A DNA stretch of 64,000 nt. It comes from Patescibacteria group bacterium (GTDB taxonomy: Bacteria; Patescibacteriota; Patescibacteriia; XYB2-FULL-38-15). A program made the translations under genes and the position numbers. The DNA lies in NCBI GenBank assembly GCA_041737355.1, contig JBGSRW010000008.1, forward strand, positions 191,061-255,060, given 5' to 3'. This document shows positions 20,577 to 63,615 of the stretch, piece by piece. Every line of letters begins with the position of its first letter. Within the stretch, counting starts at the first letter, position 1. Under the pieces are notes generated by a model, which worked only from the letters and a program-made list of their open reading frames with translations, did no database searches and was not told the origin of the DNA.

Positions 20577-21860
20577 TTAATGTGTCGCGCAGGTCATGCA
20601 AGGATCGTAAGCGCGAACCATCATATTGATTTTCCACTTTCTGTCGCGCTCGTCTTTGACCCTCGCTTCGCTTAAATATTTTTTTAAATCGTTTTCCAAA
20701 TTGTCCAAAAATTGGGCGGTCGGCGTAATGATGTTGCAGGCGCGAATCACCCCGTATTTGTCGATTTTGTAATAATGATAAAGCGTTCCGCGCGGTGCCT
20801 CGGTGGCTGCCAGCCCTTCGCCATTTTTCATTGTATATTTCACGGATAAAATTCTTGATTTTTCCTTAAGATATTCTCCAAGCAGTTTTTTAACTTCCTC
20901 AACGCAGCTAACTAATTCCACCGCCTGGGCGTAAATATTGTGGAAAGTATTATAAGTCAAAACTTTTTCGCCCGCCGATTTTTCAAAAAACGGCAAAAAC
21001 TTTTTTGCTTCGCTGCCGAGATTTTTATGGCTCAAATTAAGCCGGGCAATCGCCCCGAGCATAAAACTTTTTCCCTCGTGGCTGGCGCGTTTTGTCGGGT
21101 CGTCTTCGGATTGTTTTTCTGAAAGTTCTTTATAAAATTCTTCCACTGAAGTTTTCGGCTGAACGCTTGAACCCATTTTCCCGTCGTAAAAAGCGTACTC
21201 GCGCGGCGAAACTAGTCCAGCAAATTCAACCTTGCGTTCGTATTTCGGATAATCAAGGGCGCGGAAAAATTTTGCCACGCTGATTGCCGCCGCCAAAACT
21301 TCATCCGCCTCGTCAATTAACTCCTGCAGCAATTTATCGTCGGGAATTTTCCGGAAACCGCCGATTTCCGTGGCTAGCAAATGCATATCGCGCCCGCCGA
21401 CCACGTCTTTTATTTTATTGCCAAAATCACGGATTAAAATAATCTGTTTGGCGAGATCTGGATATTTTTTAATCAAATCAATATCGCTCTCGTATTTAAA
21501 AAAGTCCGACAAGGACAAAAAGAAAAGATGGGCGGCGTGGCTCTGGATAGGCTCTGCTAAATCTAAAACTTTCCTTAGTCGCTCTGCCTGCGGTGTAATT
21601 TTCACGCCAAAGGCCTGCTCGATCGCCTTGATACTTGTAAGATTATGGGCGACTGAGCAGATTCCGCAGATGCGCGAAGTAACAATCGGCGCTTCGATAA
21701 AATGACGATCGAGAATTATTGACTCGATGAGCCGGGCTCCAATTTTTATTTTAATCTTGGCGCTTGTGATATCGCCCCGGAGCATATCGGCAAAAAAACT
21801 GGCGTGTCCCTCGATTTTCGCAAGATGTGAAATTTTTATTTTCATAATACTATTCCTCAA
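20577..21860 (-). CDS. hydA: [NiFe]-hydrogenase large (alpha) subunit, group 3-like
   Basis: N-terminal RICGICSVAH (RxCGxCxxxH) and C-terminal DPCMTCATH (DPCxxCxxH) Ni-Fe ligand motifs. 427 aa is typical of cytoplasmic group 3 enzymes. Confidence 0.9.
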   Translation of the reverse strand: MRNSIMKIKISHLAKIEGHASFFADMLRGDITSAKIKIKIGARLIESIILDRHFIEAPIVTSRICGICSVAHNLTSIKAIEQAFGVKITPQAERLRKVLDLAEPIQSHAAHLFFLSLSDFFKYESDIDLIKKYPDLAKQIILIRDFGNKIKDVVGGRDMHLLATEIGGFRKIPDDKLLQELIDEADEVLAAAISVAKFFRALDYPKYERKVEFAGLVSPREYAFYDGKMGSSVQPKTSVEEFYKELSEKQSEDDPTKRASHEGKSFMLGAIARLNLSHKNLGSEAKKFLPFFEKSAGEKVLTYNTFHNIYAQAVELVSCVEEVKKLLGEYLKEKSRILSVKYTMKNGEGLAATEAPRGTLYHYYKIDKYGVIRACNIITPTAQFLDNLENDLKKYLSEARVKDERDRKWKINMMVRAYDPCMTCATH

Positions 21861-22608
21861 GTTTCAAAAAATCGTCTTCTGCGCCGTATGTTTCCATCAC
21901 TTCGGCCAGATATTTTTTTCCGACTAATTTTTCCAAATTTTTTATATGCTTCTTAATCTGCGGTCCGGATCCAGGAAGCGGCCCGCGGCAGCCGTAGCAG
22001 AATCTTTTGCTCCTAAGACAAACCGCCTTACATCCGCCAAGCGTAATCGGCCCCAAACATGGTTCACCTTTTTGCAGGAGGCACTCATATCCTAGCGTCT
22101 GGCATTCAAAACAGATTGGGCGGACGGGAATTTTCGGTTTCCGGCCAAAAGCTAAATCAGAAACTATCCGGTAAAATTCGTCCTGGTCAATCGGGCAACC
22201 GGGAACGGCGTAATCAACTTCTACCACCTTCCAGAGCGGCACGACGGCCGGATTTTCAATCCGCTGGTATTTTGGGTAAACATATTTAACTTTTTCTTTT
22301 TTCCCATGTTCGGTATAATTTTTTATTTCCTGAACACCGCCCAAATGGGCACAGGAACCGATCGCTACTAAAATTTTCGATTTCTTCCGCAATTCTTTTA
22401 GATATTTAAAATCTTCATGGGTGAGCGGCGTGCCTTCAACCAACGCCACGTCGTATTTCGGTCTCTCCCGCTTTTCCTCGGCCCAGGCAAAATTTCCCAA
22501 ATCAAAAATCTGAAAAAGATCGAGCATTCTTTTCCCCAAATTCAGGATCTCAACCTGGCATCCCTCGCAGCAAGTCATGCTGGCAATCGCAAGCGTCGGT
22601 TTTTTCAT
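21850..22608 (-). CDS. hydD: [NiFe]-hydrogenase small (delta) subunit
   Basis: Starts MKKPTLAIASMTCCEGCQVE. Cys clusters for proximal/medial FeS clusters. Overlaps hydA by 11 nt. Confidence 0.85.
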   Translation of the reverse strand: MKKPTLAIASMTCCEGCQVEILNLGKRMLDLFQIFDLGNFAWAEEKRERPKYDVALVEGTPLTHEDFKYLKELRKKSKILVAIGSCAHLGGVQEIKNYTEHGKKEKVKYVYPKYQRIENPAVVPLWKVVEVDYAVPGCPIDQDEFYRIVSDLAFGRKPKIPVRPICFECQTLGYECLLQKGEPCLGPITLGGCKAVCLRSKRFCYGCRGPLPGSGPQIKKHIKNLEKLVGKKYLAEVMETYGAEDDFLKLEE

Positions 22609-24752: not shown

Positions 24753-24878
24753 AGTTTATCCCCCAGACTTGTCCTTGCAGGTGTGGAGGTAAAAAAATCC
24801 CGCATGAAACTTGCGTAACACGCGGGAAAGCAGCAGTTTTGTCCAAGAGACCTAGAAGGGCCTAGGTTTCAAGAACCA

Positions 24879-25487
24879 CTACTTGTGGACGGCCAAGAAC
24901 CGGTAATGATCGCTCCATTCGATGCCGACCCAGAGTACGAAAAGGTGCCGCTCGTTGAGGCGCCAGTCGAGACAGGCGAAGAAGCGGCCGCCGTGCCGAT
25001 CCATGAAGTGCGAGCCGAGAGCCACGATCCCGAACTCCTTCTGGAGCTCGGGACGAGCGGCGCCGAGGGCCAAGAGCTCTTCGATCTTGGCCGGACGGAG
25101 GCCGCGACGGGCGAGTTCCGCGAGAATTTCGTCGGTCGAGGCCATCTTGTTCATGTGAACGAGGACGAGCTCGCGGAGGACCTTGCCCTCGCCCGAGATC
25201 GGGAAGAACCCGGGGGTGATGTCATCGTTCACGAAGTCGTAGCGGCCGGAGGCGATCATTGCCTCGAGGCTCTGACCATAGTCGACCTCGACCTTGAAGG
25301 TCGCGTCGGAAGGGAGGGCCGCCTTCACCATGGCGATTTCCGCCTGGCCCTTGACGAGAGGCAGCAACCGCGCGAGCAGGTCTCCTTCGGAGAGCCGCTT
25401 CACGTCGGCGTTGGTCCAGCCGTTCCGGCCGAAAGCCATTGCCAGCTCATGGGCCTGGCCAGTTGTCATCTTGAACTCGTCACTCAT
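24879..25487 (-). CDS. Hypothetical protein, paralog family member 1 (GC-rich cassette B)
   Basis: 202 aa. Shares the block GRYDFVNDDIT ... RGLRPAKIEELLALGA.RPE.QKEFGIVALGS ... RFLAV with the protein at 42762-43395. Confidence 0.5.
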   Translation of the reverse strand: MSDEFKMTTGQAHELAMAFGRNGWTNADVKRLSEGDLLARLLPLVKGQAEIAMVKAALPSDATFKVEVDYGQSLEAMIASGRYDFVNDDITPGFFPISGEGKVLRELVLVHMNKMASTDEILAELARRGLRPAKIEELLALGAARPELQKEFGIVALGSHFMDRHGGRFFACLDWRLNERHLFVLWVGIEWSDHYRFLAVHK

Positions 25488-25547
25488 GACTTGTTCTCTT
25501 TCTTTCTCGCAACCGATTCAATCCGAACCCCGTTGCTGTCTTTGGCC

Positions 25548-25564
25548 GAGAGAAATTCCCAGCC
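25548..25564 (-). promoter_or_regulatory. Conserved 17-nt leader motif (minus-strand GGCTGGGAATTTCTCTC), copy 1
   Basis: Identical 17-mer also present at 43522-43538, upstream of the paralogous gene. Lies in the 5' leader of 24879-25487. A candidate minus-strand TTGACA sits at 25597-25602. Confidence 0.4.
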
Positions 25565-25659
25565 AACGAATTATTAAATCATTCTTTGGATATTTTGTCA
25601 ACACCTTTTTAAATAAAAAAGAGCTAGCTTCAAAAGCCAGCTCAAGGAAAAGAAAAGAA

Positions 25660-26418
25660 TCAGTTGCGCTTGCCGTTCTCGGCTATCTTCCGGCAGGCGG
25701 TGAGAGTCGCTTCGGTCCAGTGTTCAAGCCGGCGCGCTTCATTGAGCGTGATGACTTCGACTACCCTGCCCCAGTGAAAAGCAACCAAGTCGCCAGCTCT
25801 GATACGCGGAATAATCTGCGGATCGCGCCGGACAAGACGCTTTTTTTCTTTTTCTTCCAGCTCTGCCAGGAATCTGTTACCCTCGTGCTTCAGAGATCTT
25901 GCCGAAACGGTAAGCTCCGGCCCCTTGCCAACCGAGACGACTTTTCCCCAGCCGATGCGACAAAGCTCCCAGCCGACCGATTCGCGATCCACCTGACCAG
26001 AAATTCCGCCGATTGCGAGAACATGAAAACTGTGGTGCGGCCGGTGCTGATAGTGGACGTGGTCCGTGGTTTCTTTCGCTGCCGCCTCGGTCATCCGGCC
26101 CTCGCCGACAAAACCGAATATCAGCTCCCTCAGATCTTCCGGCCGGACACGGCCGAGGAGTTCGTTGCCAATCCAGTAGGCGTCAACCACGCGGTCGTCA
26201 AGCCAGTCTTCGATTCCGTTTGCCGCGGCAATGAGCTTCAGGTAGGCCGTGGCCGCGGTAAACTGCCCCAAGAGCCGCCTTGCATGATTGTCGTCGACCT
26301 TGCTCTTGGTCGTGAGATACTGGTATAGCTTGCCCTTCTCACTGCCCCGCGGCCCGCAAAGGCCGAGTTCGTTCGGGTAAAGCGCGTAACGCGCCGCCCG
26401 CTCGTATTTCTTTCCCAT
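25660..26418 (-). CDS. Hypothetical His-rich protein translationally coupled to hypC (GC-rich)
   Basis: 252 aa. ATG is 1 nt after the hypC stop, and the hypC 3' end (gggggagaggaggaaaaaa) provides its RBS. Contains a His cluster HVHYQHRPHHSFH. GC-rich, unlike hypC. Confidence 0.5.
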   Translation of the reverse strand: MGKKYERAARYALYPNELGLCGPRGSEKGKLYQYLTTKSKVDDNHARRLLGQFTAATAYLKLIAAANGIEDWLDDRVVDAYWIGNELLGRVRPEDLRELIFGFVGEGRMTEAAAKETTDHVHYQHRPHHSFHVLAIGGISGQVDRESVGWELCRIGWGKVVSVGKGPELTVSARSLKHEGNRFLAELEEKEKKRLVRRDPQIIPRIRAGDLVAFHWGRVVEVITLNEARRLEHWTEATLTACRKIAENGKRN

Positions 26419-26652
26419 CTATTTTTTCCTCCTCTCCCCCTGATTTTGGAATTCGTCCAGGACGGCAAGGCAATTTTTCGCCTCCTCTTCGGAAATTTTT
26501 TTCATTCCAATGCTGCCTTGCACCAATATCCAATCACCTTTTGCCGCTTCCGGCAAGAGTGAAGTGTCAATATCAAAAACTTTGCCGCCATTTTTAACGG
26601 CGGCTTTATTTTTCTTGATTTTTTCAATTTTACAAGGAATACCGAAGCACAT
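26419..26652 (-). CDS. hypC: Hydrogenase maturation chaperone HypC/HupF
   Basis: 77 aa starting MCFGIPCKIEKI (the essential N-terminal Cys2 motif MC[LF][GA]IP). Confidence 0.8.
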   Translation of the reverse strand: MCFGIPCKIEKIKKNKAAVKNGGKVFDIDTSLLPEAAKGDWILVQGSIGMKKISEEEAKNCLAVLDEFQNQGERRKK

Positions 26653-27606: not shown

Positions 27607-28425
27607 TTAAATCGCTCCGCGGATATCTTTTATTTGGTCCCAGGAAAAAACCGGACCGTCCTGGCAGACAAAGAAACTTCCGACCGCGCAATGGTTGCAA
27701 ACCCCGACCCCGCAGTGCATCCGCCGTTCGAGTGACATAAAAATATCTTCGTCTTTGAACCCTGCTTTATTTAATTTTTCCAGAACAAATTTATACATAA
27801 CCGGCGGGCCGCAGAGAAACGCGACTGGGTTTTCGGCAAGCGGCGCCTTGTCAAATAAAACCGTAACCAAACCCTGAATTATTGGACAAGATAATTTAAA
27901 TTTATCCGTCGGCTTATCAAGACACAAATGAAAATCAACATCATTTTTCATCCATGAATCGTATTCTTTCCGGAAAAGCAGGTCGTCTTCGGTTTTTGCC
28001 CCGTAAAAAATCTGGACTTTTTTATATTGTTTCCTGTTTTTTACGATTTCAAAAATCGCCGTCCGGACCGTTTCAAGGCCAAGTCCGCCAACAACGATTA
28101 AGAGATTCCTCTTCTTCGCCAGTTCCGCGGGAAACGGCCGGCCGTACGGCCCGCGGACGCCGACTCTGTCCCCCGCCTTGAGGGAATGCATTGCCGCGGT
28201 TACCGTTCCGACATTTCTCGCGCAAACCTGAAATTTATTTTTTTCTGACGCGTCGGAGCAAAGGCAAAAGGGCGCCTCGCCAAATCCCGGCAAAGATATT
28301 TCCACGAACTGACCCGACTGGTATTTGAAATTTTTTGGCGCTTCAAGGGTAAACAATTTTGAATTTGAACCCTCGTCCTCGATTTTCAAAATCCTTACCG
28401 TTTGCGGCGCGTATTGATTTTTCAT
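27607..28425 (-). CDS. hydG: Hydrogenase gamma subunit (FAD/NAD(P)H-binding, [2Fe-2S]; PyrK-like)
   Basis: 272 aa. Ferredoxin-reductase-like FAD/NAD domains. C-terminal CGVGVCNHCAVG [2Fe-2S] motif. Confidence 0.8.
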   Translation of the reverse strand: MKNQYAPQTVRILKIEDEGSNSKLFTLEAPKNFKYQSGQFVEISLPGFGEAPFCLCSDASEKNKFQVCARNVGTVTAAMHSLKAGDRVGVRGPYGRPFPAELAKKRNLLIVVGGLGLETVRTAIFEIVKNRKQYKKVQIFYGAKTEDDLLFRKEYDSWMKNDVDFHLCLDKPTDKFKLSCPIIQGLVTVLFDKAPLAENPVAFLCGPPVMYKFVLEKLNKAGFKDEDIFMSLERRMHCGVGVCNHCAVGSFFVCQDGPVFSWDQIKDIRGAI

Positions 28426-29387
28426 AATTTTGCCAGAACTTTAAAAATATTTATTCCCACCGGACAAACCTTGGCGCAGCGGCCGCAGCCGACGCAGCCC
28501 ATAATTTGCAATTGGTCGGGAATTCGGACGAATTTATGGTAATACCAGAAATGGATCCGGTCGGCGGTAGTTTTTAAAAACTTTTGCCCGCCCCCCACTT
28601 CGGAAAAATCATTGTAAAAACAGGCTCCCCAGCTCCGCTTTCTGACTCCGCCATCGTCTGTCAGATTTGGCTGATCTTTAACATCAAAACAAAAACAGGT
28701 CGGACAAACCATGGTACATTTTCCGCACTCAATACAACGCGCCCCGAGATCGTCTTCCCAAATTTCTTTTTTATAAATCTTTTTCAGGGCGTCGCGGTAT
28801 TTTATCATTTGCGGATCCTTTCCTTCTTCTCTTATCGGCCCGGAAAATTGGATATGCTCGTAATCCTTGTAACCGAATTCATCAAGAATCTTTTGCCCAT
28901 CCTCCGAACCGGTATAAACAAAATAATTTTTCCCTTGGACTTCAAGGAAAATATCAAACTGCAGATGTTCTAAAATATCTTCCTCGTATTTAATATGAAA
29001 AAGATTATGCTCGGCCTCGGCAGGAATCAAACTCTGCCCGACAATCAAAGTATTTTTCATCCGCTCCTGATACCAGAGATCTTTTTCGAAAATATGGTTG
29101 AACAAAACTATTGCTTTGAGATCAATCGGATTTATCCCAAAAATTACCTGCTTCCTCGCTTTCTTCACTTCGATCATCCTGTCTTTTTTGTATTCAAAAA
29201 TAACTTCTTCCGGCGGCAGCAAAAACCGTTTGAAAGAATGAAGCGGCGGTTCTTTAACGAGCTTCACTTTTGAGGCGTCTTCAACTTTGGCGTAAGCCAC
29301 TTCGTCTTTTTGTTTTTCCGGTGCGAAAACATCATATCTCCGCTTCATCAAAAAACTAATAAATTTTTGCAGTTGTCCGTGGGTCAT
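28422..29387 (-). CDS. hydB: Hydrogenase beta subunit (4Fe-4S ferredoxin-type)
   Basis: 321 aa. CIECGKCTMVCPTCFCFD and CVGCGRCAKVCPVG iron-sulfur motifs. Overlaps hydG by 4 nt. Confidence 0.8.
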   Translation of the reverse strand: MTHGQLQKFISFLMKRRYDVFAPEKQKDEVAYAKVEDASKVKLVKEPPLHSFKRFLLPPEEVIFEYKKDRMIEVKKARKQVIFGINPIDLKAIVLFNHIFEKDLWYQERMKNTLIVGQSLIPAEAEHNLFHIKYEEDILEHLQFDIFLEVQGKNYFVYTGSEDGQKILDEFGYKDYEHIQFSGPIREEGKDPQMIKYRDALKKIYKKEIWEDDLGARCIECGKCTMVCPTCFCFDVKDQPNLTDDGGVRKRSWGACFYNDFSEVGGGQKFLKTTADRIHFWYYHKFVRIPDQLQIMGCVGCGRCAKVCPVGINIFKVLAKL

Positions 29388-34395: not shown

Positions 34396-35364
34396 ATGGA
34401 ACAGGTTATCATATCGGGAAACGCCAACCGGCTACTGGCCGAAAAAGTGTGCGGAATTCTACACGCCAAGCTCGGCGAAGCCTGGGCAGGACGCTTTGCC
34501 GACGGAGAAGTTGATGTCGGCGTGCCCAACGTCCGCGGCAAGCATGTGGTCATCCTACAGCCGACTCCCCCGCCGGCGGAAAACTGGTTCGAAATATTCT
34601 TTATGGCCGACGCGGCCATCAGCGGTTCGGCTGAAGAAGTCACGGTCTTCATGCCCTATATGGGCTACGCCCGGCAGGATCGCAAGGACAAGCCGCACCG
34701 CCCGATTTCCGCCAGAGCCATGATTAGAATGCTTGCGGCAATGGGAGTCGACAGATTGATGACCATGGATCTCCACGCCGCCCAGATCCAGGGCTTCACT
34801 CTGCTTCCCTTTGATAATCTCTATCTCTCCTCCACTCTGCTCGAATTCCATCGGGATCTCCCCTGGAAAACCGGCGCGGTGATTGTCTCGCCCGATGCCG
34901 GCGGCGTCGGGCGGGTTAGGGCAATTGCCAAGATTCTTGGCTGCGAGATTGCCTTCATCGACAAACGCCGCGACGGACCGAACCAGTCCGAAGTGATGCA
35001 TGTCGTCGGCGAAGTCAAAGGCAAGATCGCCGTGATGTTGGACGACATGATCGACACAGCCGGCTCTCTCGTCAAGGGCGCCGAAGCGGTCATGGCCGAA
35101 GGCGCGACCGAGGTCCATGCCGTCGGTTCGCACGGCGTCCTCTCCCGGAACCAGAACCCCGAGAAGGATTCGATTGAACGGCTGAAGAAGTCGCCGCTCA
35201 AAACCCTCGTCATTTCCGATTCGCTTCTGATCCCGGAGGAAAAGCGATTCGACCGCATGCACATCGTTTCTTGCGCACCGCTCGCCGCCGAAATGATCCG
35301 GCGCGTTCACAACCGAGAACCGGTTAGCCCGCTCTTTGAGGAGGCCTTTCGCTGGGTAAAATAA
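34396..35364 (+). CDS. prs: Ribose-phosphate pyrophosphokinase (PRPP synthetase), GC-rich
   Basis: YARQDRK, DLHAAQIQGF, VSPDAGGVGRVRA, DDMIDTAGS motifs. Strong RBS aaaggaggagggtga. About 60% GC versus about 42% in adjacent prfA. Confidence 0.85.
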   Translation: MEQVIISGNANRLLAEKVCGILHAKLGEAWAGRFADGEVDVGVPNVRGKHVVILQPTPPPAENWFEIFFMADAAISGSAEEVTVFMPYMGYARQDRKDKPHRPISARAMIRMLAAMGVDRLMTMDLHAAQIQGFTLLPFDNLYLSSTLLEFHRDLPWKTGAVIVSPDAGGVGRVRAIAKILGCEIAFIDKRRDGPNQSEVMHVVGEVKGKIAVMLDDMIDTAGSLVKGAEAVMAEGATEVHAVGSHGVLSRNQNPEKDSIERLKKSPLKTLVISDSLLIPEEKRFDRMHIVSCAPLAAEMIRRVHNREPVSPLFEEAFRWVK

Positions 35365-35570
35365 CCCGGCAAAAATCAAATAGTCCGCCCGAATTTCCCC
35401 TAAAATTCGGGCTTTATTTATTATTAAGACTTGACAAACCCGCTTTTCTGTAATACCCTGAAAATATCATAAATGGTGGCCATCCCGCCAAAGAGGCGGG
35501 AAGGAAGGTGGCCCTAGACATCTGCCGATAGACGGCGGATTAAAAATAGGGAAGGTTGGAGGAGAGAGAA

Positions 35571-35831
35571 ATGTTTTTGGAGAGCCTCGGCATGGATCCG
35601 GAAACCGGTACGATCGGCGCTTCTTCGCTCGGTGCGATCCACGTCAAGAACCGGATTGACCCGGAAAAACCGCTCCGTCGCTGCCAGGAACCCGGTTGCG
35701 GTACGATTCTCCGCAGCGGCAACCCGGACAACTACTGCTCGCTGCACACCTGCTCCGAAAGGCGCGGCAAGAAGTACACCGACTCCGTCGCCCTCCGGCG
35801 CCGGAAGCGGATGCATCTCGTCCGCGTCTGA
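35571..35831 (+). CDS. Small Cys-containing (zinc-ribbon-like) hypothetical protein
   Basis: ATG at 35571 with RBS ggaggagagagaa. CQEPGCGTILRSGNPDNYCSLHTC Cys pattern. Basic C-terminus. Confidence 0.4.
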   Translation: MFLESLGMDPETGTIGASSLGAIHVKNRIDPEKPLRRCQEPGCGTILRSGNPDNYCSLHTCSERRGKKYTDSVALRRRKRMHLVRV

Positions 35832-35926
35832 CCCGCCAAAAACGTGAGAGCCGCGAGTTCGCTCGCCGGCCCTCCGTTCCCAATTCGCGACCAAGGGCTC
35901 CGTCTCCCCCCGGCCCGGCCGCGAAA

Positions 35927-35985
35927 CCCGCACAGTGTCTTGGACAAGAGTCCCACTCCTTCCAGACACTGTGCGGGTATTTTTT
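35927..35985 (+). terminator. Rho-independent terminator
   Basis: cccgcacagtgtct ... agacactgtgcggg long stem followed by TATTTTTT. Confidence 0.5.
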
Positions 35986-35988
35986 ATC

Positions 35989-36017
35989 TTGACAAATTAA
36001 ATTTTTTAAATTAAGGT
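35989..36017 (+). promoter_or_regulatory. Candidate promoter TTGACA-N17-TAAGGT
   Basis: TTGACA 35989-35994, 17-nt spacer, TAAGGT 36012-36017. Same architecture as 5860-5888. Confidence 0.35.
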
Positions 36018-36083
36018 GCGGATAGAAAGGACTTGCCAAAACAACCCCGCGAATCGCGGGCAAAAGGCAAGCGGGAGGAAGAC

Positions 36084-36584
36084 ATGGCAGACGACAAGAG
36101 GGAGAAGGCAAAGGTACTTCTGGCGGACCGCCTGCGAACCCTGCAGGCCGCCGAATTTCTGGACTTCGAGGACATCGTGCGCCACCTGCAAGGTGGCGAC
36201 AGCCTCGCCCGCACCATCGTGAATCTCGCCAAGGTTGTCGGCTTCGACAGCGTCTACGGCGATCTCTACGCCAGGGCGGTCTTCAAGGACAACGGGAAAG
36301 GAATCGTCCAGACCTGGAAGAAGGCTCTCCTGAACGAGGTCTCTCTGGTCGAGGAGCTGCTTCGCAACATCCCCAACGACGAAATCCCCCTCCTCTTCAA
36401 GTTCTGGCTCACGGAGACGCGTGAACGCGCCACCTGGGAACAGCTCGTCAACGCCACCCCTTACGCCATCCTCCGGGCCTGCGCCTCCGAGGGCGACAAG
36501 CGTGCCGACGAAGCTGCCGCTGATGCGGAAGTCGTCGACGAGGAGGTCATGGAGATCGGAGAACCCTCCGACGACGGGAAGTGA
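36084..36584 (+). CDS. Hypothetical acidic protein (GC-rich cassette C)
   Basis: ATG at 36084 with RBS gcgggaggaag. The track ORF begins at a TTG at 36033. About 166 aa, acidic C-terminal tail. Hairpin plus T-run follows at about 36606-36650. Confidence 0.45.
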   Translation: MADDKREKAKVLLADRLRTLQAAEFLDFEDIVRHLQGGDSLARTIVNLAKVVGFDSVYGDLYARAVFKDNGKGIVQTWKKALLNEVSLVEELLRNIPNDEIPLLFKFWLTETRERATWEQLVNATPYAILRACASEGDKRADEAAADAEVVDEEVMEIGEPSDDGK

Positions 36585-36671
36585 TCCGTCACGGCTATAC
36601 GAGCCGCCTCCGCCATCCGCGCAATGAGCCATTGCTCAAAGTGCGGATTTTTTTATGTTATAATTCCATTG

Positions 36672-42625: not shown

Positions 42626-42761
42626 ATATCCTTAATAATTTACGCTTTTATTATAGCAAAAAATTGAAAATAAAAAAACGGCCCCGCTTCATTTCCTTTG
42701 CCTTTTGAGCATTAGATTTGAAACGGGGCCAAGAGACCGAAAGACCAAGAGGCCGCGGAGT

Positions 42762-43395
42762 TTAGTCAGAGGGCCAAACTTCGCAGAGCCTAAGGGTCTT
42801 TTTGGGAACAGCCAGAAATCGCTCTTCCTGATCCCATCCCCCGAAGCCCGAGTGCAGGACCAAAAACCGCTTTCCCTCACCGTTCCCGCAGAGGCCCGCG
42901 AATTTGCTGCTAATGTCCGGTTTTCCTCGGCACGAACCGAGGGCCACGATCGGAAACTTCTTCTGCTCCTCCGGGAACCTCGCCCCGAGAGCAAGAAGCT
43001 CCTCAATCCTGGCGGGCCGAAGACCGCGATGCTCCATCTCCGCGAGAACCTCGTCGGTTCTCACCATCTTATCCGGCCCCGGGTAGACAAGGATGAGCTT
43101 GCGCTCGGCCTTGCCCTCGCCTGTGATGTCAAATTGGGAGAAGAGGTCTTCGCACGTGGGCTTCTCCTCGTTACAAACTGGACAGATTTCGTCGGTGATC
43201 TCCTTGTCCACCAAGTCGTAGTGGCCAGCGGCGATCATCTCAGGAAGATCGATGAAGTAATTCACTACCACCTTGAAGCTCCGGTCGGCGAACTGACCCG
43301 GATTCCGCAAGAAGACCTGAAAGGCCTCACGCGTCACCCGGCCGGACTCGATCTGGTGGTGGAGTTCGGAAATCTGCTCGATCGTCGGCTTTGCC
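42762..43395 (-). CDS. Hypothetical protein, paralog family member 2 (GC-rich cassette D)
   Basis: Start taken at MAKPTIEQ with RBS gcaaggagaaaagaaa. GHYDLVDKEIT ... RGLRPARIEELLALGARFPEEQKKFPIVALGS ... RFLAV, paralogous to 24879-25487. Confidence 0.5.
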
Positions 43396-43521
43396 ATTTT
43401 CTTTTCTCCTTGCATCTTTCGGTATTCGCCAGGGCATCCCCACATTATTGTTGGGACAGCCTTTTGATAAACCGACGAGACGCTTGCTCCGCACTCCTGG
43501 CAAAGAGTGAAGAACCTAGCT

Positions 43522-43538
43522 GAGAGAAATTCCCAGCC
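43522..43538 (-). promoter_or_regulatory. Conserved 17-nt leader motif (minus-strand GGCTGGGAATTTCTCTC), copy 2
   Basis: Identical to 25548-25564. A candidate minus-strand promoter TTGACA (43637-43642) -N17- TATTAT (43614-43619) lies upstream. Confidence 0.4.
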
Positions 43539-62133: not shown

Positions 62134-63615
62134 TTAAATGTCGTTGATATTCTCGTCCCTTTTCTTAAGCCATTTCCTCGTTCCCCAAATAATAGTCAAA
62201 CCGACCAACGCGCCGATAGGAAAAGAGAAAAACGGATTTTGCGCGCTTAAAAAACTGACGCGGACGGTCGTTGCGTATTTTTTAGTATAGCCATTTTCGT
62301 TTTTCGCCTCCATGGTTACGATGTAGCTGCCCGATCTGCCGTAAGAATGCTTTACCTGGTTGCCGCTGACTTTCGTACCGTCACCCAAAGTCCACGTATA
62401 GTTCAATTGGCTGACCGCCGAACCGCCGTTAACTTTAAAAATAAAAGTATTCCAGCTTATCTTGGCCGACTCAACAAAAATATTTTTAAAAGCATCATCC
62501 CCCGACAGATCTCCGTTTCCGGGTTCCTCTTCAAAAATTCCTTCGCTCCCCCCGGATGTCCCGGTGTCAGCCCCGTCTGATGCAACAACATCTTGGCCGT
62601 TTACCGCATCGCAAACATCGCCCTTCCCGTTTTTATCATTATCGGCCTGGTCTGAATTGGCTACCAGGGGGCAATTATCCTTTCCGTCAAGAACGCCATC
62701 GTTATCGGTATCCGCGTCGAGAGGATCAGTACCGATATCGCCCTCGTTGGTATCCGAAGAAGAATCATTGTCGTCATCCGTATCGCAGGCGTCGCCCTTG
62801 CCGTCCCGGTCGGTATCGGTCTGGGAAGCGTTCGCTATTGAACGACAATTGTCACGGCTGTCGGGAACTCCGTCTCCGTCGCTGTCAGATGAAGGAGGCG
62901 GGCTGCTGTTGTCAACCGTATCGCAGGCGTCGCCCTTGCCGTCCCGGTCGGTATCGGTCTGGCTTGGATTAGAAATTAGAGGACAGTTATCCTGACCATC
63001 CTTTATGCCATCATCATCGGTATCGGGATCAACCGGATTGGTTCCTATTGTGCCTTCATCGGTATCCGGCAACCCGTCGTTATCATCGTCGGAATCGCAG
63101 ACATTACCGACACCGTCGCCATCCGTGTCGGCCTGATCCGGGTTGGACGCGTTGGGACAATTATCATTTTTATCGATTATCCCGTCACCGTCACCGTCTT
63201 TTTCCGGATAAAAAAACCCTGTCAGCGCCGAATCATTTGCCGAATTATCGTCCCTCGGCTGCTGACCGAGAATATCAACTCTAATATTGAAACTCCCCTC
63301 GGGGACAACCCAGTCAACAAAAACTTCGTCGCTCAAACCGCCCGCCCTGACAGAAATAATCTGAGATGTTCCGATCAAAGTCGGACCGGCAAAAAATTGC
63401 GCTGAGCCAAGAACGTCTTTTGTTCCATAGTTTCTGATGGCCGCGTAAAGTCTTACAGGCTGACCGACGATCAGGGGTGATCCGGCGAAAAAAATATCAC
63501 CGGAACTTATTCCCAAATCATAAGTCAGCGTTTGGGCGCCGGCAGCTTGTCCACAAACCGCCAAAACTAAAATCAAGGTACCGGAAAAAATGACTTTTGT
63601 TGAGAATTTTCCCAT
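62134..63615 (-). CDS. Cell-surface protein with thrombospondin type-3 (Ca-binding) repeats and a PKD-like domain, C-terminal TM anchor
   Basis: Signal peptide, six or more DxDxDGxxDxxDNCPxxxNxxQxDxD repeats, PKD-like segment (WTLGDGTKVSGNQVKHSYGRSGSYIVT), C-terminal TM. Confidence 0.6.
   Translation of the reverse strand: MGKFSTKVIFSGTLILVLAVCGQAAGAQTLTYDLGISSGDIFFAGSPLIVGQPVRLYAAIRNYGTKDVLGSAQFFAGPTLIGTSQIISVRAGGLSDEVFVDWVVPEGSFNIRVDILGQQPRDDNSANDSALTGFFYPEKDGDGDGIIDKNDNCPNASNPDQADTDGDGVGNVCDSDDDNDGLPDTDEGTIGTNPVDPDTDDDGIKDGQDNCPLISNPSQTDTDRDGKGDACDTVDNSSPPPSSDSDGDGVPDSRDNCRSIANASQTDTDRDGKGDACDTDDDNDSSSDTNEGDIGTDPLDADTDNDGVLDGKDNCPLVANSDQADNDKNGKGDVCDAVNGQDVVASDGADTGTSGGSEGIFEEEPGNGDLSGDDAFKNIFVESAKISWNTFIFKVNGGSAVSQLNYTWTLGDGTKVSGNQVKHSYGRSGSYIVTMEAKNENGYTKKYATTVRVSFLSAQNPFFSFPIGALVGLTIIWGTRKWLKKRDENINDI
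62779..62963. repeat. Exact about 47-bp direct repeat (two copies) within TSP3-repeat gene
   Basis: ccgtatcgcaggcgtcgcccttgccgtcccggtcggtatcggtctgg occurs at about 62779-62825 and about 62917-62963. Confidence 0.6.

Follow-up and report, generated by a model that had tools for sequence, protein, structure and literature searches.

Diversity-generating retroelements (DGRs) of the canonical kind combine a variable region (VR) with a template repeat (TR), Avd and a reverse transcriptase (RT), and act by adenine mutagenesis (PMC5758913). DGR targets of Patescibacteria (CPR) were first surveyed by Paul et al. 2017, as cited in PMC8144416, and Roux et al. 2021 described a DGR clade that is restricted to Patescibacteria and whose targets have no recognisable TM or other conserved domains. 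The same study predicts novel C-type-lectin folds among the CPR targets (PMC8144416). Here we report on two genes, ORF A and ORF B, that lie in a 64-kb stretch of DNA from a Patescibacteria group bacterium (hereafter the window). Sequence comparisons lead us to believe, with a probability of roughly 0.85, that both genes encode variable (target) proteins of CPR DGRs and that only the target halves of such elements are present in the window. DGR targets in CPR are already established, and the present finding is a classification, not a discovery.

The family to which the two genes belong is like the Patescibacteria 'clade 2' targets (PMC8144416) in its host group, in comprising small proteins without a recognisable TM or Pfam domain, in a C-terminal VR on a presumed C-type-lectin fold, and in a cassette that holds a target, TR, Avd and RT and shows adenine-specific mismatches, the likeness being one of description. 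ORF A and ORF B differ from 'clade 2' in that neither has a TR, Avd or RT within 64 kb. Mtd of Bordetella phage BPP-1 shares with the family the adenine mutagenesis of AAC codons, the C-terminal VR on a lectin fold and a constant 3' end (IMH) beyond which, downstream of the VR, lies a cis element (PMC5758913). However, Mtd is a trimeric phage tail-fibre tip protein and its gene order differs. The downstream cis element of BPP-1 is moreover a GC-rich inverted repeat, whereas here an array of 8-nt CTTGG units is found, and then a terminator. TvpA of Treponema denticola (PDB 2y3c; Wu et al. 2018, PMC5758913) comes from a system in which one DGR has several dispersed paralogous targets, as is the case in a Falkowbacteria MAG described below, but the 277-residue PDB chain has an FGE-type domain and a sequence identity of only 7%. 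Other FGE-like domains (SUMF2, EgtB, OvoA and SenA) and the C-terminal domains of Bdellovibrio Bd2740 and Legionella Lcl fall within an identity range of 2-13%, and DGR linkage is absent in those entries. These domains are structural analogues or remote homologs only.

Both genes were confirmed as open reading frames on the minus strand of the window, ORF A at 24879-25487 (202 aa) and ORF B at 42762-43397 (211 aa from a MAKPT start). The longest reading of ORF B is 42762-43445, which gives 227 aa if the ATG at 43445 is used. We consider 43397 the most likely start because an AAGGAG Shine-Dalgarno sequence stands 9 nt before it and the N-termini of homologs agree with it. An earlier note on this DNA had the strand, the 42762 end and the length of about 211 aa of ORF B right, with a start (43395) that is 2 nt off. 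The same note held the two proteins to be paralogs with shared collinear blocks, and this is borne out. BLASTP aligns them with 45% identity over 163 aa (12% gaps, E=3e-33), and the blocks RGLRPAKIEELLALGA, IVALGS and RFLAV were verified in both. Similarity is not confined to low-complexity segments, as the match spans the entire C-terminal domain, that is the C-terminal two-thirds of both proteins. Additional copies were sought by running a family profile against a six-frame translation of the window, which recovered exactly two, ORF A with E=1.7e-81 and ORF B with E=2.4e-61.

Sequence and profile searches with ORF A and ORF B against Pfam, NCBIfam, PHROGs and PDB gave nothing significant, only sub-threshold noise, and by-eye inspection showed neither a signal peptide nor a membrane helix in either protein, which fits the account that Roux et al. 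give of CPR targets (PMC8144416). The earlier description of both as proteins of unknown function therefore stands insofar as they match no curated sequence family, but their kind can now be recognised, namely CPR DGR targets with a predicted C-type-lectin fold. A homology search returned 83 hypothetical proteins of ~180-250 aa, with several copies in some genomes; the named sources of these 83 homologs are Patescibacteria, among them Falkowbacteria, Magasanikbacteria and Uhrbacteria. When the profile search was made exhaustive it yielded 10,921 representatives (50% identity) at E<=1e-3, of which 1,833 remained at E<=1e-30. A family of this size, spread across many Patescibacteria lineages, is not cassette-specific, and the proposal of a duplicated family peculiar to two GC-rich cassettes has to be given up.

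The GC content is 0.63 for ORF A and 0.57 for ORF B compared with 0.46 for the window, so both genes are indeed GC-rich. What does not hold is the idea of a GC-rich island common to them, since GC-richness is a trait of the gene family. In 61 of 62 related loci the family gene has a higher GC content than its flanks (mean 0.55 versus 0.42), and the excess extends over the whole gene and not over the VR alone. The local GC anomaly is thereby explained as a family trait. The cause of the trait could be frequent transfer or a compositional requirement of retrohoming. Another GC-rich stretch of the window, at 34396-36632 (GC 0.52-0.62), holds no family copy; it contains a ribose-phosphate pyrophosphokinase-like gene at 34396-35364 (+), identified by eye, and overlapping ORFs of ambiguous coding strand at 35514-36632.

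AF2 models of the two proteins have a pLDDT of 93 for ORF A and 85.5 for ORF B and share a common topology, from which a C-type-lectin fold is predicted for both, with the VR making up the C-terminal strands. Foldseek, which the earlier note had suggested as a check, agreed weakly with a lectin fold. ORF A is modeled as a three-helix N-terminal module (residues 9-45) that is followed by a linker and by the C-terminal lectin-fold domain (residues 63-201). The last four strands of the lectin domain hold ~13 hypervariable positions, the VR being the last ~45 residues. ORF B has the same lectin-fold domain and a different N-terminal helical module. Relative to the family it also carries an insertion of ~17 aa by BLASTP, which includes ICPVCNEEKPTCEDLF (CxxC...C) and may form a small metal-binding loop. 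A low-confidence stretch of the ORF B model (pLDDT ~60) lies at about residues 70-95 (window ~43113-43190).

The N- and C-terminal modules appear to have been shuffled among relatives, judging from which N-module is joined to which C-domain. The N-module of ORF B is like the one in P0003 and unlike the one in ORF A, even though the C-domain of P0003 is A-like, and the ORF A N-module is found on proteins with another C-domain. The latter module (MSDEFKMTTGQAHELAMAFGRNGWTNADVK..., residues 1-50, window 25338-25487) recurs at 61-77% identity on P0050, P0051, P0053, P0059, P0070-P0075 and P0080-P0083, whose C-terminal domain is different and shorter and also ends in ...W....W....R.L.RRK. Some family members of 320-550 aa (P0084-P0094, P0097, P0100 and P0102) have two or three lectin-fold domains in tandem.

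A lectin fold together with a patterned variable C-terminus (GS.W....G.R.....L......R.L.L.W....W....RFLAVRK) made us suspect a DGR target, and the genomic context of relatives shows that this is what the family consists of. We took 80 related loci from reference genomes, nearly all of them Patescibacteria MAGs. A second copy of the 3' end of the gene is present elsewhere in 36 of the 80 loci, and in 26 of these 36 it is a copy of 125-170 nt that lies ~290-410 nt downstream and has 75-90% identity. Across the 26 pairs, 456 of 533 mismatches (86%) fall where the downstream copy has an A, and several loci are 100% adenine-specific. Translation of these TRs gives ...GSVWQN.NGNRN...RNLNLNW.DNDWNDN.RF.AVR, and the gene copies are diverse at the Asn positions. 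In 27 of the 80 loci an RT homolog is encoded no more than ~2.5 kb downstream, and 26 of these 27 also have a PF05635-like Avd homolog on the opposite strand. TR, Avd and RT come after the target gene in 29 related loci; in L024 the order is VP, TR, Avd, RT and the RT carries a YADD motif. Because the concentration of VR/TR mismatches on template adenines is the hallmark of DGRs, we conclude that the family genes are targets of canonical VR/TR/Avd/RT DGRs with adenine mutagenesis. By full-domain similarity, with the profile scores given above, both ORF A and ORF B are members of this CPR DGR target-protein family.

The TR in these loci is preceded by a conserved non-coding leader of ~250 nt, which lies between the terminator of the target gene and the TR (L010 10530-10878; L024 10475-10832; L044; L027; L085 7480-7714) and contains the motifs GGATAGTAGAC and AAAAT(N3-4)ATACTTGGTRCA.AATAT..GGA. 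A hairpin and T-run stand directly 3' of the TR, with Avd encoded on the other strand. The leader has no Rfam match and may be the part of this clade's DGR RNA that is structured.

A target gene in this family need not have an RT beside it. Among loci with at least 3 kb of downstream sequence, 33 are without an RT, so copies lacking one are the majority state. L019 (CAYRHW010000001, 9908-11008), L007 and L077 have a target gene and a TR, but their available flanks contain neither an RT nor an Avd homolog. In L019 every one of the 18 mismatches lies at a TR adenine, and a serine hydroxymethyltransferase-like gene comes next. Loci of this type imply that the RT acting on a TR can be encoded elsewhere. 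Remote VRs whose mismatches to a single TR are mainly at adenines were found in two genomes. In Falkowbacteria JAFGMD01, two VRs on other contigs were compared with the TR of L010, and 20 of 27 substitution mismatches (plus a 6-nt indel) are at adenines for L006 and 17 of 26 for L008. In H43-bin053_1, 25 of 33 mismatches of L016 to the TR of L041 are at TR adenines. In a shared-TR pair of this remote kind, similarity is higher in the VR (78%) than across the remainder of the gene (69%).

We aligned ORF A with 18 TR/VR pairs of related loci, which places its VR equivalent at 24882-25019 (-), residues L157-K202. Its residues at the 13 hypervariable sites are D163, H165, G167, F169, D174, R176, E179, H181, F183, L185, I189, S192 and H194. 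The codons at 12 of these 13 sites are NNC or NNT and none encodes Asn, while the E179 codon is GAG, which is consistent with AAG>GAG. These codons appear to be the imprint of past AAC mutagenesis, and not necessarily of current activity.

The closest relatives of ORF A are P0003 and P0004 (loci L085 and L086), both of which belong to complete DGRs, where 14 of 15 and 26 of 27 VR/TR mismatches, respectively, are at TR adenines. DNA identity between ORF A and L085 changes along the gene. It is ~50-60% in the N-terminal module, which is a different module, mostly 79-82% in the lectin core (with one 60-nt block at 70%), 68-77% in the variable region, and 87-88% in the constant 3' end, the short-repeat array and the terminator. 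Aligned without gaps to the TRs of L085 and L086, the VR of ORF A (VR_A) has 72-74% identity, with 21 mismatches at template adenines and 15-17 elsewhere; the two TRs (TR85 and TR86) differ from each other by 6%. The constant 3' end of ORF A has a G>A substitution in the last Arg codon (CGC>CAC). Directly after the stop codon is a short-repeat array at 24843-24878 (-), made of about four ~8-nt units with the cores CTTGA, CTAGG, CTAGG and CTTGG, which is homologous to the arrays of L085 and L086 but one 8-nt unit short. A terminator-like hairpin (CCCGC...GCGGG) with a T-run follows at 24791-24826 (-). A three-way alignment shows that the homology ends exactly after the T-run of the terminator. 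Past this point L085 and L086 continue with the conserved leader, TR, Avd and RT, whereas the window continues with unrelated sequence, and a convergent housekeeping-type gene begins ~210 nt downstream.

ORF B is the more eroded copy. Its VR equivalent (VR_B) is at 42798-42941 (-), LGSCRGK...RFLAVPKK, and has NNC or NNT codons at roughly 9 of ~12 template-Asn sites in an alignment read by eye. This VR is more drifted than that of ORF A, with several K, E and Q codons. In place of the usual RK-stop it ends with PKK and read-through, and loss of the usual stop accounts for a 13-aa C-terminal extension. A degenerate short-repeat array at 42729-42797 (-), with CCTCTTGG, TCTTTCGG and TCTCTTGG as its clearest units, is consequently partly translated (13 codons), the stop codon having moved to 42762-42764. 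Reading of the sequence also reveals a terminator-like hairpin (GGCCCCG...CGGGGCC) with a T-run at 42672-42730 (-).

None of the remaining DGR parts is present in the window. A repeat search, blastn with settings that detected TRs in the related loci, and a degenerate A-or-N regex all failed to find a TR for VR_A or VR_B in the 64 kb. A tblastn search of the window with the RT and Avd of L024 gave a best value of only E=0.33, and ten mid-size ORFs of the window inspected for RT or Avd all have other Pfam identities or none. The TR leader motif was likewise not found in the window. A DGR hidden within it is therefore ruled out, which leaves the two genes as DGR targets that are orphaned locally. 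The degenerate A-or-N pattern of VR_A gave 0 matches in metagenome contigs, among which the window itself was also unmatched. A phage origin was considered and ruled out, as there are no PHROG or viral-fold matches and the neighbours are housekeeping-type and other cellular genes.

In the complete elements, by homology, the TR RNA is reverse-transcribed and random bases are placed opposite template adenines, mostly those of AAC codons; the mutated cDNA then replaces the VR, so that ~13 surface positions of a ligand-binding face are rewritten. ORF A has kept the VR, constant 3' end, array and terminator of such an element, with the TR, Avd and RT cut off exactly past the terminator, and ORF B is a more drifted target copy with a displaced stop codon. 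We infer that both VRs bear the imprint of past adenine mutagenesis and that the two proteins are presumably binding proteins whose specificity resides in the positions set by a DGR. We have little doubt that the two genes belong to the DGR target family and were targets in the past. Whether either is still a target is where the alternatives diverge.

The account that survives best, to which we give about an even chance, is that ORF A and ORF B were once diversified, then split from TR, Avd and RT, whether through a deletion or because only the target module was transferred, and are now ordinary binding proteins of fixed specificity. The exact break in homology past the terminator of ORF A is what such a separation would leave, and the convergent gene ~210 nt downstream leaves no space for a TR. 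The non-adenine mismatches of VR_A to its nearest TRs (15-17) point in the same direction, although they may reflect a different cognate TR, given that TR85 and TR86 themselves differ. For ORF B, drift at third codon positions of its VR, the K, E and Q codons and the displaced stop all argue for fixation. Furthermore, the VRs of the window pair are less similar to each other (51%) than the adjacent core (64%), which is the opposite of what is seen in TR-sharing pairs. Harder to reconcile with this account are the intact frames and confident AF2 folds of both ORFs, and the 3' non-coding flank of ORF A, which is better conserved than its coding sequence and so suggests continuing constraint on cis elements.

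Less probable, and in our view doubtful, is that the two are live targets in trans, with a DGR elsewhere in the genome rewriting ORF A and, less likely still, ORF B via a second TR. Precedents for this exist within the family, namely the remote VRs of JAFGMD01 and H43-bin053_1, the excess similarity of the VR in the remote pair, and the prevalence of copies that lack an RT. ORF A itself has an intact frame, no Asn at any of its 12 template-Asn sites, and a constant 3' end, array and terminator that are 87-88% identical to those of DGR-linked relatives, but its constant 3' end bears a substitution and one array unit is missing. The extent to which the two VRs differ is a further constraint. VR_A and VR_B differ at 68 of 138 bases (49%), at all codon positions (25, 17 and 26), whereas the TRs of the family contain 19-28% A. 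Sharing of one TR by ORF A and ORF B is therefore ruled out, and any single TR could serve at most one of them. Taken gene by gene, continued rewriting of ORF A is a minority possibility, not a negligible one, whereas for ORF B, with its stop codon lost and its NNC signature eroded, it is improbable, and ORF B is probably fixed.

That the genes are lectin-like paralogs with a coincidental resemblance to DGR targets, or that the longer antisense ORFs (24885-25577 (+), 230 aa, over ORF A; 42705-43523 (+), 272 aa, over ORF B) are the real genes, might seem to be favored by the lack of DGR components in the window, but is effectively refuted by the ~80% DNA identity of ORF A to genes of complete DGRs, VR and 3' flank included, by thousands of homologs in the minus-strand frame and by the confident AF2 models of the two proteins, long antisense ORFs being expected in GC-rich coding DNA.

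Returning to the reading of both genes as targets of CPR DGRs, the short-repeat array behind them is a candidate for a cis element in DGR targeting. Over the 70 nt that follow the stop codons of target genes, the CTTGG 5-mer is enriched 17.6-fold (103 observed versus 5.9 expected). Cores are CTTGG or the variants CTCGG, CCTGG and CTAGG, with a modal spacing of 8 nt, and at least three of them are present in 53% of loci compared with 1.7% of random 70-nt windows. The array is located between the VR stop codon and the terminator, in the related loci (L005-L086) as in ORF A and ORF B. It follows RT-linked and RT-less copies alike and is absent after all 14 TRs that were examined. Within the window the ORF A array is the sole one with at least four cores on either strand, and it is better conserved than the ORF A coding sequence. 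No description of the CTTGG array was found in the literature searched, a search that Paul et al. 2017 fell outside. We tentatively suggest, as an idea that is rather unlikely to prove right as it stands, that the array of 8-nt NNNCTTGG units could be a target-recognition signal of CPR DGRs, akin to the IMH-proximal inverted repeat of BPP-1. If so, dispersed genes such as ORF A would be labelled by the array for diversification in trans, and a single RT could sustain a repertoire of hypervariable binders encoded by several genes in a small CPR genome.

Two genes annotated as "hypothetical" thus become interpretable as DGR-type hypervariable binding proteins, and orphan or remote targets of this sort bear on how ultra-small symbionts vary their partner-binding proteins. 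The family has neither a Pfam nor an NCBIfam model, and most of its members have no RT next to them. Surveys for DGRs in which an RT beside the VR is a requirement will consequently miss most of them, and the missing of RT-distant targets is a limitation that Roux et al. 2021 acknowledge (PMC8144416). A very large family without a curated model, its RT-less majority and the conserved CTTGG array after the VR may be of further use.

Several other features of the window were recorded. Directly upstream of ORF A is a gene for a DUF6390 protein (E=1.2e-45) that is GC-rich as well (25660-26652 region), with a small ORF beside it at 26419-26652 that is HypC-like by eye. A hydrogenase small subunit-like gene, again by eye, is at 21850-22608, and an Fe-S (4Fe-4S dicluster) protein is encoded at 28422-29387. 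Among the other loci with gene content listed, no link was seen between these neighbours (DUF6390, HypC-like, hydrogenase and Fe-S) and the family. An Rfam scan of the whole 64 kb found no family at the gathering score, and no tRNA or other known RNA gene. Near the end of the window, 62134-63615 (-) encodes a protein of 493 aa that has a PKD domain and five matches to the thrombospondin type-3 repeat, and the direct repeats of family D1, detected at the DNA level at 62595-62991, sit inside this gene.
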